From Longimicrobiales bacterium (GTDB lineage: Bacteria > Gemmatimonadota > Gemmatimonadetes > Longimicrobiales > Gaopeijiaceae), in NCBI GenBank assembly GCA_965249725.1, contig OZ252251.1, positions 192,001 to 256,000 of the forward strand: a stretch of DNA of 64,000 bases, in the 5' to 3' direction. Made by a program: the position numbers and the translations under genes. The notes under the pieces are model-generated. The model was not told the origin of the DNA. It ran no database searches and was given only the letters and a program-made list of their open reading frames with translations. Shown here one piece after another: positions 44,153 through 52,283 of this stretch. The first letter of the stretch is position 1, and every line of letters begins with the position of its first letter.

Positions 44153-44272
44153 CATCATCAAGACCGGCTGAGGGGCAGGCCCTTTGAAGCCGGGGCAACC
44201 TTCGGGGAACTACGCAGTCTCCGAAACAGGTGCCAAGTCCTGCGGGAACTTCGGTTCTCCGACAGATGAACT
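44153..44272 (+). ncRNA. SAM-I (S-box) riboswitch
   Basis: P1 TCATC...GATGA; ATCAAGA, GAGGG..GGCCC..TGAA kink-turn region, GGCAACC, GGTGCCAA.TCC; upstream of Met biosynthesis genes. Confidence 0.93.
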
Positions 44273-44372
44273 CGCGTCCGTTTCCGACCTTCCTGGTCGA
44301 GCTTTCGGGTCCGTCAGAATCATCCGCCGGCGCTCCTCGTTCCCCGCCGCCATGGAACTGGAGCGAACAGCG

Positions 44373-45431
44373 ATGACTGAGCAGATCGGAATCGGCGTCT
44401 CGGGGGACCGCGTGTCTACGCCCGCCCTGGACGCATACCGGACGACGGGCTCGTCGCCCACGGTACACCTTCTCGGACCTGGACGTGTGGGTCGAGCCTT
44501 CTTGGACCTGCTCCGCCGGACGGGCCACACGGTGGCCGGTGTGACGGACAGCAGCGGGACCGTCACGGCGTCGGACAGCGTGGACTGTGAGCGGGTCATC
44601 GCTGCCAAGGAAGCCGGGGAAACACTCGCTTCCGCCCTGGGTGCCAGCCCCCTGTCCCTCGCCGATGCGCTCGCGGAGGTCGACGCGGATGTAGTAGTCG
44701 ACACCACCGCCACCGACTTCGGTCGGCCCGAGTGGGCCGAGACTCTCGACGAGAGCGTTGTACGGCGCGGAAGGGGACTGCTTCTGGCGGCCAAGGACGC
44801 TGCGGCCTCCCACGTGGATCGTTGGAGCGATCCCGCCCTGGACGGACGGGTGGGCATCAACGCGGTCCTGGGCGGCGCGGGACGACAGTTGCTCGATTCC
44901 GTCAGCGAACTCCGAGGTGACTGGGTCGAGGCCGCCTTCGTCGGCAGTGCCTCCACCACGGCCATTATCGAGGTCCTGGAGGCTGGAGGTTCCTTCGAGG
45001 AGGGCCTGGCGGCGGCGGATAGGCAGGGCTTTCTGGAGTCCGACCCGGAGTTGGACCTGAAGGGCGTGGACGCCGCGGTGAAGCTCTCGGTGGTCGAGGC
45101 CGCGTTGACCGGCCGGCCGGCCGTCTTGGTCGTGGCTCAGGACCTGCGCGACGTGGATCCGGTGATCGTCCGGGAGCGGGTCGGTGAGGGCCTGACCACT
45201 CGCCTCGTGGGAGAGGTCAGGCGTGACGGTGCCAGCACGCTGAGCTACAAAGCCGTGCCCAAGGGGAGCACGCTCGACGTCGGCTGTGACGAGGTGGCGT
45301 ACACGTATCGCCTGACCAGTGGCGAGGTCTGTACACATCGGGGCAAGGGACTGGGTCCGGGACCCACGGCCGAGGCCGTCGTCGTCGATCTCGAAGCGCG
45401 GTTCCCCGTGAGTGTGGGGAGGCCGTCATGA
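44373..45431 (+). CDS. hom: Homoserine dehydrogenase (divergent, no ACT domain)
   Basis: GPGRVG, VVVDTT, AAKD, ESDPELDLKGVDAAVKL, GKGLGPGPTA.AVV.D; operon context. Confidence 0.78.
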   Translation: MTEQIGIGVSGDRVSTPALDAYRTTGSSPTVHLLGPGRVGRAFLDLLRRTGHTVAGVTDSSGTVTASDSVDCERVIAAKEAGETLASALGASPLSLADALAEVDADVVVDTTATDFGRPEWAETLDESVVRRGRGLLLAAKDAAASHVDRWSDPALDGRVGINAVLGGAGRQLLDSVSELRGDWVEAAFVGSASTTAIIEVLEAGGSFEEGLAAADRQGFLESDPELDLKGVDAAVKLSVVEAALTGRPAVLVVAQDLRDVDPVIVRERVGEGLTTRLVGEVRRDGASTLSYKAVPKGSTLDVGCDEVAYTYRLTSGEVCTHRGKGLGPGPTAEAVVVDLEARFPVSVGRPS

Positions 45432-46420
45432 AGACCGTGACCGCTCAGCCGTTCGGCACCGTGACCCTGGAGGACGCTTCCGCCGGCGACACGGTGGCCT
45501 ACGCCTCCTATGGTGCGGAGGACGCTCCTGCCGTCTTCGTGCTCGGGGGCATTTCGGCGCACCGCTTTGTGTGCGGAAACCCCGACGGGCACCCCGACGG
45601 AGGCGACGGATGGTGGCCGGGCGTGGTGGGTCCGGGCGTCGGCCTCGATCCCGAGCGTTACCGCATCTTGAGCATCGACTGGCTCGGGGGTGCCGGAGAT
45701 TCGACCGGGCCCGGGACCAACGGTTCGGGCCCGCCCGTCGTGACTACGCAGGACCAGGCCCACGCGATCGCCCGTGTTCTCGATCACCTCGAGATCGAGC
45801 AGCTCCACGGATTCGTGGGGGCCTCCTACGGCGGAATGGTGGGGTTGGCCCTGGGTGTGCTCTACCCGGAGCGAGTCCGACGGCTTCTCGTGCTCTGCGC
45901 GGCGCACCGAGCGCACCCCATGGCCGTGGGGCTTCGGGTGCTGCAGCGCCGTATCGTGGGGTTGGCAGCCGCATCCGGCCGGGAGACCGAAGGGCTCGCG
46001 CTTGCCAGGGCCCTCGCGATGACGACCTACAGGACCCCGGAGGAGTTCGAGCAGCGATTCGCGTCGTCACCCAACTGGGTTGAAGGATCCCCGCGCTTCG
46101 CTGTGGAGGACTATCTCGAGTACCAGGGCGAACGCTTCAGCCAACGCTTCGACGCAACCGCCTTCAGAGTGCTCACGCAGTCCCTCGACATCCACCGGGT
46201 GGAGCCCGAGGACGTTCTGGTCCCCACGACCGCGATGTCGGTCGACTCCGATACGCTCGTGCCACCGTGGTTGGTGGCCGAGCTGGTGCGCAGGCTGCCC
46301 AGTTCGGGCAGGGCCGTGCGGATCGCATCGAACTTCGGGCACGACGCATTCCTCAAGGAGCACCAGGCCGTGAGCCGGCTGATCCTCAATGTTCTGGAAG
46401 GGGAGGCCCAGCATGGCTGA
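45428..46420 (+). CDS. metX: Homoserine O-acyltransferase, MetX family (GGISA type; probably succinyl)
   Basis: GGISAHR, GWW, GASYGGMV, AMTTYR, FGHDAFLKE. Confidence 0.88.
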   Translation: MKTVTAQPFGTVTLEDASAGDTVAYASYGAEDAPAVFVLGGISAHRFVCGNPDGHPDGGDGWWPGVVGPGVGLDPERYRILSIDWLGGAGDSTGPGTNGSGPPVVTTQDQAHAIARVLDHLEIEQLHGFVGASYGGMVGLALGVLYPERVRRLLVLCAAHRAHPMAVGLRVLQRRIVGLAAASGRETEGLALARALAMTTYRTPEEFEQRFASSPNWVEGSPRFAVEDYLEYQGERFSQRFDATAFRVLTQSLDIHRVEPEDVLVPTTAMSVDSDTLVPPWLVAELVRRLPSSGRAVRIASNFGHDAFLKEHQAVSRLILNVLEGEAQHG

Positions 46421-47717
46421 CCGTCGAGCCGAGACCCGTGCGGTACGAGCCGGAGTGGCGGTCAACCGCGAGCACGGGTCCGTGATCCCACCCATCCACC
46501 TCTCCTCGACGTTCGCGTTCGAGGGCCTGGGCGTGCAGCGGCAGTATGACTACACCCGCTCGGGGAATCCGACGAGGGACATCCTGGGGCAGGCGCTGGC
46601 CGATCTGGAGGGTGGCCAAGACGCTGTGGTCACCGCGTCGGGTATGGCGGCGGTCACGTCCGTCCTGCAGCTGCTCGGACCGGACGACCTGATCGTCGCG
46701 CCTCATGATTGTTACGGCGGGACCCACCGTCTCCTGACCAGCTTCGCTCGCAAGGGCCAGTTCCGCCTGCAGCTCGTGGATCAGACGGACTCCGGCGCTC
46801 TGGACGAAGCCCTCGCGGCCGAACCACGCATGATCTGGGTGGAGACCCCCAGCAACCCGCTGCTGCGTGTGGTGGACATTGCCGACATCGCGGAGCGTGC
46901 ACGCGCAGTGGACGCCCTGGTGGTCGTCGACAACACCTTCCTCTCACCGGTCTTCCAACGTCCCATCGAATGGGGCGCGGATCTGGTCGTGCACTCCACG
47001 ACCAAGTACCTGAACGGGCACTCCGACGTGGTTGGCGGGGCGGTCGTCGCGCGGACACCGGAGTTGGCGGAGGAGGTCGCGTGGTGGGCCAACGCACTGG
47101 GTGTGACCGGCTCGCCGTTCGACTCGTTCCTGACCATGCGGGGCATCCGGACCCTGCACGCCCGCATGCAGATGCACGAATCAAACGCAGCTGCGGTCGT
47201 CGATGCCCTGAAGCAGCACCCCTCGGTGAAGCGCGTGTACCACCCCAGCCTCGAGGACCATTCGGGACACCACATCGCGCTGTCCCAGCAGTCCGGGTTC
47301 GGGGGCATGGTCAGCTTCGAGCTGGAAGGAGGAGAGGACCAGGTGAGGGCCTTCCTCGACGGCTTGGAGCTGTTCACGCTGGCGGAGTCCCTGGGTGGCG
47401 TCGAGAGCTTGGTGTGCCACCCGGCGACCATGACGCATGCGGCCATGGATGATGAGGCGCGCCTTGTTGCCGGAATCGGTGCCAGCTTGCTGCGTCTTTC
47501 GGTCGGAATCGAGGCAGGAGAGGATCTCGTACGCGATCTGACCCAGGCGCTCGACCGAACGATAGAGGCCCAGCCCGTGGTGTTTGCCGCTTCGGCGGCG
47601 GCCTCGGCGGCGCTCCGGACTGCGGTGGCGAAGGACCCCCGTGACACGCACTGGGTACGGAGGCGCGAACCGAGCCCCGTCCCGAGCCCTGTGCATATCC
47701 TACCCGATCGTGCGTGA
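46413..47717 (+). CDS. metB: Cystathionine gamma-synthase
   Basis: YDYTRSGNPTR, ETPSNP, VDNTFLSP, HSTTKYLNGHSD, LAESLGGVESL, LRLSVGIE; GGAGG RBS. Confidence 0.93.
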   Translation: MADRRAETRAVRAGVAVNREHGSVIPPIHLSSTFAFEGLGVQRQYDYTRSGNPTRDILGQALADLEGGQDAVVTASGMAAVTSVLQLLGPDDLIVAPHDCYGGTHRLLTSFARKGQFRLQLVDQTDSGALDEALAAEPRMIWVETPSNPLLRVVDIADIAERARAVDALVVVDNTFLSPVFQRPIEWGADLVVHSTTKYLNGHSDVVGGAVVARTPELAEEVAWWANALGVTGSPFDSFLTMRGIRTLHARMQMHESNAAAVVDALKQHPSVKRVYHPSLEDHSGHHIALSQQSGFGGMVSFELEGGEDQVRAFLDGLELFTLAESLGGVESLVCHPATMTHAAMDDEARLVAGIGASLLRLSVGIEAGEDLVRDLTQALDRTIEAQPVVFAASAAASAALRTAVAKDPRDTHWVRRREPSPVPSPVHILPDRA

Positions 47718-48611: not shown

Positions 48612-49032
48612 TCAGCCCGAAGTGTCGAAGCTCACGATCTGAGGTACGTGATCCTCGGCCTCGAGGAAGCGCAGCAATCCCTCCGGAGCGATCGACGTGG
48701 TCATGCTGTTGTCGAGAGGGTGGACGTTCAGGGCCTCGCTCGTCCTCAGTTCCGAGTCAATGGCCACCTGCACGGCCTGCGATGTGTCGTTGATGACGGC
48801 CAGCGGCGTGACGGCGCCGGGAATGACACCGAGGTAGCCCATCAGCCGCTCGCTGCTGCCGAACGACAGTCGTCCGGAGCCGATGAGGGAGCCTACCTCT
48901 CCCTTGAGGTCCAAACGGCGGCTTTCGGGTGTCACCAGGAGCCACATCTTCCCCTTCTTGTTACGCAGGAAGAGGTTCTTGACGTGGGCTCCGACGATGG
49001 GACCGCGGTGAGTTTTGGCTTCTTCGACGGTG
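48612..49032 (-). pseudogene. ProX/PrdX (YbaK-like) aminoacyl-tRNA editing gene, 3' part
   Basis: TVEEAK...HVKNLFLRNKKG, LSFGS, LGVIPGAVTP, NVHPLDN; cut by the IS element. Confidence 0.9.
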
Positions 49033-49097
49033 GGTAGTGGGTCATTTTGAATTGTTTAGGCCCTGCGCGGCGAGCTTGGCCCCGTTAGGTTTCAAGT

Positions 49098-49364
49098 ATG
49101 CCGAAAAAGAAGTCCATCGCGAAGACCAAGCTCCGACCCGACATGAACGAGACGGCGCACCGCGTTATGCTGGAGGCGACTGGGCAGGCCTCGAAGACAA
49201 AGCCACCGGACGAGCGGGTTGACGAAGAGAAGAACCCGGAAGCCGTGAAGCGCGGGTCTAAGGGCGGGCTGCAGGGAGGGCACCGGCGCGCAGAAGAACT
49301 CTCACCGGAGGAACGAAGCGAAATAGCAAAGGGAGCTGCGATCAGTCGCTGGCAGGAGCATTAG
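49098..49364 (+). CDS. Small basic KGG-motif protein of the IS element
   Basis: PDMNETA..V...TG, KNPEAVKRGSKGGLQGG..RAEELSPEERSEIAK.AA..RW. Confidence 0.75.
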   Translation: MPKKKSIAKTKLRPDMNETAHRVMLEATGQASKTKPPDERVDEEKNPEAVKRGSKGGLQGGHRRAEELSPEERSEIAKGAAISRWQEH

Positions 49365-49367
49365 CCC

Positions 49368-49553
49368 CTAGGCAAGGGCCTCTCTAATGGCCCGCATCTG
49401 CTCAATAGCCTTCTCAACACGTTCGATCTGCTGGCGCTTCACGTCATAGCTCGGATGTTCGGCAGACTCGTAAGCAAGCTTCGTATACTGGAGCGATTCG
49501 AGAATTAGTGGCATATCGAGGCCTCCCAGCGCATCCTGAATAGTGTCACTCAT
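49368..49553 (-). CDS. Small helical hypothetical protein (IS cargo, 61 aa)
   Basis: GGAGAGGA RBS; ATG overlaps the end of the upstream ORF; MSDTIQDALGG...MRAIREALA. Confidence 0.6.
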   Translation of the reverse strand: MSDTIQDALGGLDMPLILESLQYTKLAYESAEHPSYDVKRQQIERVEKAIEQMRAIREALA

Positions 49554-50094
49554 CGTCCTCTCCCCGAGCGAGCCGAAGGTACTCTGCCTCATTCTCACGC
49601 TTGATGCTCGCGACCAGGGCGCGGCGCTGCTTAGTCCGGCGGATGAAGTAGTCACACGAAGCTCGAAGGTCTTTTGGCACCTGGCCCTTCGCAATCGCCC
49701 ACATGACTTCGCTAGTGTTCGCCATCGAGTGCGCCCGCTCAAGCTCAATCTCTTCCTTCCAACGCAGCCCCAAGAGGGGGTTTGCCGTGAACTTGAGACC
49801 GTAACCATACACACTGGCAAAATACAGAATGAACTCATCGGCGATCTCAACTCGCTTCTCGTAGAATAAGCGGCGGTGACTGCCAGGGTCAGAGGAGAAA
49901 TCGAGTCCTCTGGGGAAGCTCTCGCATATGGTCCGCTTGGACAGCTCTTGGAACGACAACTCAATGACCTCGCCGTCCTCCAGTCCCGTCATTCCGGCCA
50001 CCGAGGGCCGCAACTGCACCGCGATGGGTTGAAGAAGTTCCTCCCTCATCACTTCCCACGCGGTGCGATTCCGCTTGGTGCCATCTCCGCTCAT
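49546..50094 (-). CDS. Hypothetical protein (IS cargo)
   Basis: About 182-aa ORF between two co-oriented cargo genes; alternative GTG start at 50112. Confidence 0.6.
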   Translation of the reverse strand: MSGDGTKRNRTAWEVMREELLQPIAVQLRPSVAGMTGLEDGEVIELSFQELSKRTICESFPRGLDFSSDPGSHRRLFYEKRVEIADEFILYFASVYGYGLKFTANPLLGLRWKEEIELERAHSMANTSEVMWAIAKGQVPKDLRASCDYFIRRTKQRRALVASIKRENEAEYLRLARGEDDE

Positions 50095-50123
50095 AACATC
50101 CCCGCTGTGCACAGGCCAACGTC

Positions 50124-51050
50124 TTAGTCAGGCGACTTCGCGGACTCCTCAAGCTCTGCAGGCTTCGTGGGCAGCGTGAGCTTTGCTTTTCTCGCCAATG
50201 CCTGTAAGGCCTGGCCTGCTTCGTACACGATGCCTGCAAGCTGGAACGCAACTCGTGGCCCCAGGTGGCGAGCGTGCTGTGCGTGCCCTAGTCTGGAGAT
50301 CGAATCGATGAATACCCGCCCCTTTCGAATCGTCTCCATTGCAGCCTCATCGGCCGCTCGTTTTGCACGCTCCTGGGCGTCATATCCGTAATCCACCTTG
50401 GCTTGGCGGACATCCTTACGGATCTCTGACGCGGCACGGTCCGCGCTGATTCGATCCGTCCTAAACTCACTACGCACACGCTTGAGCTTTCTGGTCAGCT
50501 CTAAGGCCTGATCGGAAGAGATCAGCCCTTTCTCTTCGGCCTGGTTAATTTCCGCTTCACCACGTGCAGGATCGGTCACAAACGCAGCTCGCTGATAGGT
50601 CGTTGCGCTCATCCCGGCTGCTGCTGCTGCCAACCTCCTCGGCTTTAGGTCTTCTGGAGTGGTGGGCGCCTTTCCATGTTGCGTCGCTAGACCAACCAGG
50701 TCATCCTGCGTGACTTCCCCTCGGTCCAGAAGATCGTGGTAAGCGTCGGCCTCCTTCTGGCGGACAAACATTGACTTCACCGAGCGATAGGCGTTGGCGA
50801 GCAAGATGTGGCGCCTTATATCCTCTTTGTCTGTTTCACCAACTACCCGCACCTCGATGTCTGTCCAACCAAGTCTCTTCGCAGCAGTCCATCGCCTCGC
50901 ACCTGAAAGGATTTGGTCATGCTGGTCGATCTCAATTGGGTATTTCAACCCGAACTGCTCTAGGCTCTCAGCCAGTCCATTATCAGGCTGACCGTAAACC
51001 TCGGTGTTGAAAGGGTGAACGCGCAGTTGTTTCACGGACCGAACTGGCAT
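50124..51050 (-). CDS. ParB/Srx N-terminal-domain protein (IS cargo)
   Basis: LRVHPFN..VYG, LAESL..FGL.YPI.ID...ILSGARRW.AAK.LG; HTH-like AAAAGMSATTYQRA. Confidence 0.8.
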   Translation of the reverse strand: MPVRSVKQLRVHPFNTEVYGQPDNGLAESLEQFGLKYPIEIDQHDQILSGARRWTAAKRLGWTDIEVRVVGETDKEDIRRHILLANAYRSVKSMFVRQKEADAYHDLLDRGEVTQDDLVGLATQHGKAPTTPEDLKPRRLAAAAAGMSATTYQRAAFVTDPARGEAEINQAEEKGLISSDQALELTRKLKRVRSEFRTDRISADRAASEIRKDVRQAKVDYGYDAQERAKRAADEAAMETIRKGRVFIDSISRLGHAQHARHLGPRVAFQLAGIVYEAGQALQALARKAKLTLPTKPAELEESAKSPD

Positions 51051-51167
51051 CAGTGATTTCCGTCATGTTGAGGGGAATCATTGGAGTGTGGAACATAAAT
51101 CTAAAAACGATGCGGGGGGACCGCAACGGTCCCCCCCAAGTCGTTGTACCATATAGCATTCCCCCCC

Positions 51168-51196
51168 TTGACAATGCTTGAGCACTTGACTAGTTT
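51168..51196 (+). promoter_or_regulatory. Putative transposase promoter (TTGACA-N17-TAGTTT), likely leaderless
   Basis: Perfect -35, TAnnnT -10 ending 5 nt before ATG 51202, no SD sequence. Confidence 0.55.
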
Positions 51197-51201
51197 CCAT
51201 C

Positions 51202-52067
51202 ATGAACAGACTCTCAGACGCCAAGCGCGCAGCAATCCTCCGGTGCCTAACCGAAGGCAATTCCATCCGGTCCACGGCCCGCATTACGGGCACCGTGAAA
51301 GCCACCGTCCTAAAGCTGTTGGTCGAGGCAGGCGAGTTCTGCTCGAACTATCAGGACCAGGTTTTGCGGGATCTGGACTGCAAGCGCATCGAAGCCGACG
51401 AAATTTGGGCCTTCATTGGAGCCAAGCAGAGGAACGCGAAGAAGGCCGGGGACGGCGACATTTGGACGTTCACCGCCATTGATCCCGATTCCAAGTTGAT
51501 GGTCGCGTGGTTCGTTGGTGACAGAAGCCCCGAGAGCGCCACCATGTTCATGGGGGATCTGGCGTCACGGGTCTCAGGGAAGATCCAGCTAACGACGGAC
51601 GGCCACGGGATGTACCTGACCGCCGTTCGTGCGGCCTTCGACTTCCGCAACATCGACTACGCTCAGGTGGTGAAGCAATTCGGCCAGCCGGGCTCCACCG
51701 AGGAACAACGGCGCTACTCACCAGCGACACGCACTGGAGCCAAGAAAATCAGGAAGATCGGAAACCCCAACCCGGACCTGATCTCAACATCCATATCGTG
51801 GAGCGCAGCAACCTCCAGCTTCGGATGTCTTCGCGACGCTTCACCCGTTTGACGAGCGGATTCAGCCGGAAGGCCGAGAATCATGCGCACGCGGTCAGCC
51901 TCACCTTCATGGCGTACAATTTCTGCACGCCTCACGGAACGCTCACAAAGGGGCGTGGTGGCCTCAAGACCACTCCAGCGATGGCCGCTGGCATTACTAA
52001 TCGTCCGTGGCATATCGAGGACATCCTGGCCCTTATGGAATCCTACCGCGTTGGAAATTCAAAATGA
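51202..52067 (+). pseudogene. IS1-family DDE transposase, frameshifted near 51795
   Basis: HTH EGNSIRSTARITG, IEADEIW, WTFTAID, LTTDG, ISTS / VERSNL..R...RRFTRLT.GFS.K.ENH, YNF, TPAMAAG; stop lies inside the right IR. Confidence 0.9.
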
Positions 52068-52076
52068 CCCACTACC

Positions 52077-52197
52077 CGACGGTGAAGACGGGGCGGTGGT
52101 GTTGTGTCTGTACAGGGATGCCCAGCTCGGCGAGCCGCCGAAAGACGTCGTCCGGTGTCGCCGGTGGCGATCCGTCGATGAGTCGGCCGGGTTCCAT
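52077..52197 (-). pseudogene. ProX/PrdX editing gene, 5' part (40 codons)
   Basis: MEPGR...PATPDDVFRRLAELGI...HHRPVFTV joins in frame to the 48612-49025 part once the IS and one TSD copy are removed. Confidence 0.9.
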
Positions 52198-52283
52198 CAG
52201 TTGCTCGCCCCTCTCATGGCACTGCCCCGGTACCCGGTGGATCACTAGATTGATGCCTCATCGATTCACCCGCGGAGAAGCAC

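Follow-up and report, generated by a model that had tools for sequence, protein, structure and literature searches.

An IS1-type transporter insertion sequence with a ParB-like cargo gene splits an aminoacyl-tRNA editing gene in an uncultured Longimicrobiales bacterium

The element and its insertion site

The DNA analysed here, referred to as the window, is a stretch of 64,000 nucleotides (nt) from a Longimicrobiales bacterium (contig OZ252251.1, positions 192,001 to 256,000), and our subject is an element of 3,044 bp that occupies 49033-52076 of it and is almost certainly an IS1-type transporter insertion sequence (IS). Its terminal inverted repeats (IRs), at 49033..49053 on the plus strand and 52056..52076 on the minus strand, are identical over exactly 21 nt, GGTAGTGGGTCATTTTGAATT, and both start GGTAGTG; an 8-bp target-site duplication, CGACGGTG, lies on both flanks (49025-49032 and 52077-52084, plus strand). 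Ends and duplication fit the traits of the IS1 family, namely ends of the form GGnnnTG and duplications of 8-9 bp. The GC content of the element is 57%, against 64% for the genome.

From left to right the element holds a small basic chassis gene on the plus strand (49098..49364; 88 amino acids (aa), pI 9.6); three cargo genes on the minus strand, c3 (49368..49553; 61 aa, acidic, pI 4.8, no family), c2 (49546..50094; 182 aa, no family) and c1 (50124..51050; 308 aa), the last with a ParB N-terminal domain of CTPase fold by PF02195 and TIGR00180; and, in the leader of the cargo operon, a 23-bp GC palindrome with 10-bp arms (51114..51136), a candidate attenuator or loading site. The right end is taken up by a plus-strand transposase in two frames, 51202..51852 and 51798..52067. 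A possible promoter for it, TTGACA-17 nt-TAGTTT on the plus strand (51168..51196), was picked out by eye 5 nt ahead of the ATG, while a consensus promoter scan returned 0 sites and did not call it. The small basic gene is labelled 'KGG' from a degenerate KGG motif only, since its protein had no Pfam or NCBIfam match; one relative of the protein is annotated 'histone H1'. A preliminary description made from the letters alone had the length, the 21-bp IRs, the 8-bp duplication, the KGG-type open reading frame (ORF), the three antisense ORFs and the right-end transposase, all of which are present, and we confirmed its claim that the transposase stop (TGA, 52065-52067) falls within the right IR. 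It overlooked the two transposase frames, the fact that a host gene is interrupted, and also the probable start of c2 at ATG 50094 (182 aa), which matches the gene call in P0032.

The insertion interrupts a gene on the minus strand whose product has an aminoacyl-tRNA editing domain (YbaK/ProX-like; PF04073, E 6e-24), leaving the C-terminal part at 48612..49032 and the N-terminal part at 52077..52245 (start uncertain: 52245 or 52197). Excising the element together with one duplication restores an unbroken tRNA_edit frame, and the split gene has no paralogue in the host genome, G000 (tblastn, E 0.01; self-match only). The empty site was recovered in four of four sequencing runs, which came from four studies of other samples and were chosen among 18 low-share runs: there, contigs join 49024 to 52077, skip 3,052 bp (3,044 + 8) and so keep CGACGGTG as a single copy. 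The flanks of the empty site differ from the window at 0-1 positions across about 1.45 kb in runs X5, X6 and X10. An empty site with near-identical flanks in other samples means that the insertion is real and recent, and the locus is polymorphic. It is a clean example, from an uncultured bacterium, of a tRNA-editing gene with a knock-out that is both recent and polymorphic.

In the likely source sample (X1-X4, four runs of one sample and hence not independent support), the left junction was bridged by contigs with 0 differences in three of four runs (X1, X2, X4) and the right junction in one (X3), as judged by a 31-letter rule. The preliminary description had made its case depend on the junctions being spanned, and each of them is, though by separate contigs. 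An assembly chimera, with the element derived from another community member, has a negligible probability: the source sample is complex, with many related elements, and no single contig spans the whole element, but the exact duplication agrees with the empty allele of four other samples, and this allele together with the bridged junctions largely refutes it.

The copy count proposed in the preliminary description gave one complete copy in G000, which is 95.8% complete; the only other traces there are one truncated right end and one relic of fused ends. A composite transposon was considered and rejected. No RNA dataset containing the locus was listed. Upstream of the insertion, at 44184-47717 of the window, lie three consecutive genes that by eye resemble those of homoserine dehydrogenase, homoserine acyltransferase and cystathionine gamma-synthase.

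Related elements and exchanged cargo

Of 200 other genomes in the family, 22 contain an 18-nt motif taken from the element ends (2/200 in a reversed control), and a degenerate form of it matched 25 of 400 genomes of the phylum (control, 5/400). All matches except those in G329, G442, G011 and G526 were fetched, giving 55 loci. Ten of these are complete, in that both IRs, a transposase and the small basic gene are present, and they represent nine distinct elements of 2.2-6.1 kb; the rest are lone ends, fragments or relics. Duplications are exact at eight of the ten (8 bp in seven, 9 bp in L140), while that of L123 measures 7 bp by eye and L105 has none. Five of the ten complete loci were included in the KGG profile; L140, L143, L149 and L151 fall outside it and thus provide four independent confirmations of the small basic gene. 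The nearest transposase to that of the window is from L149 (61%). The same layout extends to plasmid records with a close transposase: the small basic gene is present in four of four, IRs with an 8-bp duplication in three, and three are annotated 'IS1 family transposase'. Elements on alphaproteobacterial plasmids measure 3,370 bp in Mesorhizobium, 4,224 bp in Hoeflea and 2,634 bp in Acidiphilium.

The chassis is widespread, and the nine siblings and the three plasmid elements have cargo of unrelated kinds. Among the siblings, L105 and L106 carry a ClpP-like SDH protease, L109 a PIN gene with a partner, L111 RmrT/RmrA (RosmerTA), L121 a P63C gene, L123 a C5 methylase, an Eco29kI-type nuclease, Vsr and RmrT/RmrA (RosmerTA), L140 membrane proteins and a proteasome-like gene, L143 a DUF3800 gene, L149 a HigA-like helix-turn-helix (HTH) gene with an IrrE peptidase, and L151 small unknowns. 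PADLOC, run on five of the nine siblings, matched two (RosmerTA in L111 and L123, type II restriction-modification (RM) in L123). The transposase ends of L106, L109 and L111, about 0.92 kb, are 84-88% identical, yet these elements have no cargo in common, which means that the cargo is replaced at a faster pace than the chassis diverges. In L121, L123, L143, L149 and L151 the cargo lies to the left of the KGG gene and in L140 behind the transposase; with the window's, this makes three positions and no single fixed slot.

The preliminary description had proposed an IS1-type transporter with a recurring chassis and exchangeable cargo, to be checked by gathering elements of the same chassis and listing their cargo. 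Nine distinct siblings with unrelated cargo bear out this proposal, although its single variable cargo slot has to be given up; its expectation that such slots often hold defence genes agrees with several siblings but not with the present element, whose cargo matches no known defence system. A description of this chassis was not found in the literature searched, which did not extend to the primary IS papers, and neither were the names ISMhu11, tISSce1, tISNisp5, tISOba3 and ISMha11. One 18-bp motif of the ends is enough to pick out small elements with exact boundaries, so the chassis can serve directly as a screen, and because passengers are often conflict genes, unknown passengers like the present ones are candidates for new systems.

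Individual siblings showed further features. In the 6.1-kb sibling at L123:436-6538, a complete type II RM system with Vsr and the RosmerTA pair flank the small basic gene. A proteasome-subunit-like gene (weak PF00227 match) lies behind the transposase and within the element at L140:3008-4054, and at L121:1377-2411 a P63C-domain protein with a KGG-type N-terminal segment is encoded antisense to the chassis KGG gene. L105 and L106 are two copies of one element in genome G338 with one flank in common, but a matched duplication and an intact transposase are present in L106 alone, an arrangement that suggests an IS-mediated rearrangement. An identical lone end with an identical 12-nt flank, TCGATCGTGTAG, occurs at L120, L133, L138 and L139 (three genomes, twice in one), and L118 and L119 have flanks of GATGATCG type; a preferred target or an old shared insertion are possible sources of these repeated flanks.

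Eleven palindromes of 27-36 bp consist of two fused element ends. Ten are among the 55 loci (L110, L113, L116, L128, L130, L136, L145, L146, L153 and L157) and one is at C3:853362-853388 of G000, and nine of the eleven are flanked by a repeat matching at least 7/8, or 9/9. They are about as common as complete elements (11 loci, the window's included), and low-depth joints of this kind, 49051 to 52056, were present in X2 and X5. Tn10, for which PMC12524634 describes nearly precise excision by slippage, serves as a model: the relics with a duplication resemble such slippage deletions between IRs, although here the process is deduced from genome sequences of an IS1-type group. By this analogy we infer that the relics probably arose by slippage deletion in place; they could also be mobile as minis.

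Other elements in G000 include a related right-end remnant at C2:403930-406400 (transposase C-terminus 65% identical), the end of which is almost the same as that of L105/L106; it is cut off by an IS3-like element, after which comes an IS1595-like one (family labels by eye). Two further sequences, C3:1681760-1685815 (4.1 kb) and C3:1749787-1751744 (2.0 kb), have perfect 21-bp IRs and 8-bp flanking repeats, and the longer of them may also carry passengers.

Transposase

The first transposase frame contains the HTH and catalytic residues D66 and D133 (NF033558, E 5e-14, under cut-off) and the second an ERSNL motif, with the third catalytic residue, and the C-terminus. The split into two frames is due to 2 extra bases near 51792-51796, and the protein departs from the correct frame near 51795, between D66/D133 and the third residue. 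Its D, D and E motifs are recovered in alignment. NF033558, the IS1 model of NCBIfam, was the best model for this transposase and for four of four intact siblings, all under its cut-off, and the intact transposase of L123 passes the Pfam cut-off for PF03400. Classical IS1 (the IS1A subgroup) has an N-terminal zinc finger and a programmed -1 frameshift joining InsA and InsB. No zinc-finger motif was found ahead of the HTH here, and a kept HTH with no zinc finger would fit the ISMhu11 group, whose members have a single-frame transposase.

Programmed frameshifting as in classical IS1 would join the two frames, which do overlap, and would make the element autonomous. We consider this very improbable and rejected it, because no slippery run is present at the frame break, seven of the ten complete sibling loci have an unbroken single frame with the broken ones (L105, L121, L149) interrupted at different places, and related contigs in eight of eight runs include forms that lack the 2 bases, one of them with just 7 other differences across 490 nt. 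In an intact element, the DDE transposase would cut at both IRs and insert the element with an 8-bp stagger; in this copy the 2 extra bases would put the third catalytic residue in a different frame from D66 and D133, and no active enzyme would be made. The present copy does not have the intact transposase frame of an autonomous IS. It is very probably non-autonomous and likely moves only with the transposase of a relative. About 52 of 125 depth units in run X1 belong to the form with the 2 extra bases, far more than the 13-16 in the flanks of the locus, and in the likely source sample identical right ends lead into 2-3 other flanks. These observations hint that frameshifted copies spread in trans, with the caveat that depth is no copy number.

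Cargo genes and their distribution

The c1 protein combines the ParB N-terminal domain with a helical C-terminal half, and in its structural model (predicted local distance difference test (pLDDT) 79) two paired helices span 137-159 and the C-terminal helices are long. The helix pair is a predicted central HTH with no Pfam HTH match, and the palindromes upstream differ between loci. Thirteen close relatives were found at 50-88%. In alignment with Spo0J of B. subtilis, and with Noc, c1 has GARR for GERR and ANAYR for ENLQR, so that both positions of the catalytic glutamates are alanine. None of the 14 members of the c1 family has glutamate at either position, while G50, R52, R53, N86 and R89 are invariant in all 14, and the nucleotide-binding Gly, Arg and Asn of Boxes II-III are present in the family. 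The Ala/Ala pair occurs in none of 101 other ParB-like loci, a comparison set biased by its search pattern; at least one of them, L007, appears to have neither glutamate, and 14 motif pairs were unaligned at the second site. By alignment, the missing glutamates are a trait of the c1 family, and not one unique to it.

With both glutamates lost and the nucleotide-binding residues kept, we predict c1 to be a clamp that hydrolyses poorly, a reading that we favour, if without great confidence. Engineered proteins offer a precedent: according to PMC8494293, Spo0J E78Q and E111Q bind cytidine triphosphate (CTP), close the gate, do not hydrolyse and spread further, and ParB E102A of C. crescentus is described as clamp-locked in PMC8367383. 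PadC, too, has neither catalytic glutamate (PMC8494293). ParB-fold proteins that cannot hydrolyse CTP have so far been studied mainly as engineered mutants, and c1 provides a natural case in which to ask what they do. No parA was found in the element, nor among the ORFs beside c1 in locus L001, only some of which were scanned against families; a ParABS partitioning role was rejected on the absence of the catalytic glutamates and of parA from the element.

For c2, eight close relatives were found, and the family comprises 30 clusters at 50% identity. Most of its conserved columns hold G, W, Y, T or R, and an acidic or His catalytic set is not among them. Across 34 members no Pfam or PHROG family turned up more than once, no PDB sequence matched under E 0.5, and there was no likeness to the cargo protein of L149. 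The best Atlas score was 0.78 (a lead only) and the best VIA Z was 5.7, for terminal helices only. The N-terminal half of its model is weakly predicted, from secondary structure, to be winged-helix-like; several of the top Foldseek rows are winged-helix proteins, none of them significant (E above 2). The start of c3 overlaps the end of c2, and c3 has two relatives, at 79% and 66%. The leader palindrome is terminator-like on the minus strand and has no second match in G000 even when 4 mismatches are allowed.

The assembled runs suggest variation within the cargo. In contigs of X1-X4, branches occur at 49871 and 50095 (depth steps 13, 36 and 53), one exactly at the start codon of c2 and the other inside it, and the 30-nt loose ends of both branches are absent from G000, which suggests other near-identical copies in the source sample, from which c2, wholly or partly, and the left end are missing. 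The cargo region is mostly uncovered in X5, X6, X7 and X10, and low-depth joints lead from within the KGG gene to the transposase start in X5, X7 and X10; these joints may represent cargo-poor relatives.

Outside the window, c1 and c2 are adjacent in L001, the single complete context recovered for the pair, where they follow an XRE repressor and two unknown genes, have prophage lysis genes as neighbours and face an endolysin gene head-on; no IS ends, transposase or c3 were found around them. Relatives of c1 and c2 lie on contigs of identical size in eight cases, and those of c3 on a contig size of 323,684 bp in common with c1 and c2 and of 1,275,570 bp in common with c1, which is indirect evidence of linkage; the trio recurs on other contigs at 66-91% identity. 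It is scarce all the same: c1 was found in 0 of 300 other genomes of the order and c2 in 0 of 400 of the phylum, a metagenome scan for c1 gave two true family loci among 77 and a GTDB scan 0 of 26, and neither protein was found in viral contigs, nor c1 in phage records, nor c2 in plasmids. GC at third codon positions rises from 0.59-0.71 in the cargo through 0.73-0.77 for the chassis to 0.81-0.82 for two host genes. Rarity, composition and the IS-free context of L001 together indicate that the cassette is a rare foreign module, separate from this IS.

Function of the cargo

The locus as a whole is best explained, with a probability of about 0.7 in our estimate, as an IS1-type transporter IS that splits a tRNA-editing gene, has a frameshifted transposase and carries a cassette that likely acts as a regulator made up of a clamp and its partner. 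The cassette would have been acquired from a phage-type accessory pool. Upon nucleotide binding, c1 dimers would close round DNA, hydrolyse poorly, stay on and spread; c2, the partner, would be bound at its sites and halt the clamp at target promoters or make use of it there, in the way that KorA acts on KorB and BisC on BisD, and c3 would be a small modulator. Clamp-plus-partner regulators are described on plasmids and integrative and conjugative elements (ICEs) in PMC13768133, and by analogy c1 and c2 may work as such a KorB/BisD-like pair, a role that we propose tentatively and at somewhat less than even odds.

Several observations weigh against this account. The transposase scored 53 bits with NF033558, for which the cut-off is 100 (intact siblings, 52-73). 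For c1, the first glutamate is absent from 17 of 32 other distinct motif pairs; Caulobacter ParB E135A closes early and entraps DNA poorly (PMC8367383), so the loss of both glutamates may not yield a DNA-loaded clamp; and the nucleotide specificity of ParB folds is described as unpredictable from sequence in 10.1101/2025.10.10.680097. Upstream of c1, three of three loci (window, L001 and L002) have a GC palindrome, but its sequence differs among them; it may therefore act as a terminator and not for loading, and no conserved loading site is shown. In L002, c1 is cut off after about residue 266, follows IS remnants and is not accompanied by c2. The model of c2 is poor (pLDDT 57; helices, one beta-hairpin and a long C-terminal helix of 36 residues), its Foldseek search gave no match under E 2.3, and its family of 30 clusters is broader than the close family of c1.

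Among the alternatives, the cargo might be a toxin-antitoxin or abortive-infection module in which a toxic c2 or a locked c1 is restrained by c3 or the leader hairpin until infection. The RosmerTA, type II RM, PIN and HigA-like HTH-IrrE passengers of the siblings would suit such a role, as would the head-on endolysin in L001, the small, acidic c3 coupled to c2, and the contig branches at and inside c2, which fit selection against that gene. These branches are, however, known from unitig depth and short loose ends only, c3 is absent from L001, the conserved columns of c2 contain no acidic or His catalytic set, and PADLOC 2.0 gave no match for KGG, c2 or c3 and just a weak one (E 0.003) between c1 and the ParB part of a methyltransferase model. 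On balance we regard a defence role as possible but doubtful.

The cassette could also be a neutral hitch-hiker, that is, captured phage accessory genes that benefit neither host nor element and are decaying. A broken transposase, a disrupted host gene, truncated variants and the scarcity of c1 and c2 among order and phylum genomes are all in keeping with this, but the three cargo frames are intact and coupled, and recurrence of the trio at 66-91% identity implies purifying selection somewhere, not necessarily on this element. We think a neutral cassette unlikely. Rather improbable, too, is a more ambitious form of the clamp-plus-partner proposal, in which a portable, naturally hydrolysis-dead ParB clamp with a locking partner would load on DNA, spread without being recycled and, wherever the element inserts, silence or block other replicons (prophages, plasmids or the host ParABS). 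Were this so, a clamp-type regulator or defence system would be described on an insertion sequence for the first time, with a cross-phylum IS1-type chassis shuttling conflict genes.

Comparison with known systems

The element shares with the IS1 family a DDE transposase for which NF033558 and PF03400 are the best models. Compared with IS1A of E. coli it is about 4 times longer and has neither the N-terminal zinc finger nor the programmed frameshift of InsA/InsB, and compared with the family it has an extra conserved small basic gene, this copy being frameshifted. By transposase, ends and duplication it is an IS1-family member, of the transporter IS kind and not a classical IS1. The cargo of the present element is not known among the passenger types of transporter IS. 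Transporter IS (tIS) are described, in PMC3129680 and PMC7986276, as having one transposase, one IR pair and unrelated passenger genes, and like them the present element holds its passengers within one IR pair with a single transposase.

For the cargo, the closest parallels are KorB-KorA/TrbA of RK2, BisD-BisC of ICEclc and VirB of pINV (PMC13768133). Like them, the cassette has a ParB-fold protein on a mobile element, no ParA in that element, and a second, co-encoded protein that is predicted to bind DNA. The present cassette differs from them in residing on a 3-kb IS that has no distant genes of its own to regulate, in a c1 with neither catalytic glutamate and in a c2 that matches no solved structure by sequence. 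With canonical ParB/Spo0J and Noc, c1 shares the ParB_N fold, GxRR, and the Asn and Arg of Box III followed by a helical region, but it has no N-terminal extension before the fold and no parA accompanies it in the element; the equivalents of E78 and E111 are alanine, so that the glutamates are missing as they are in hydrolysis-dead engineered mutants and in PadC (PMC8494293). The class of the element is thus already known, whereas its cargo is new and uncharacterised.

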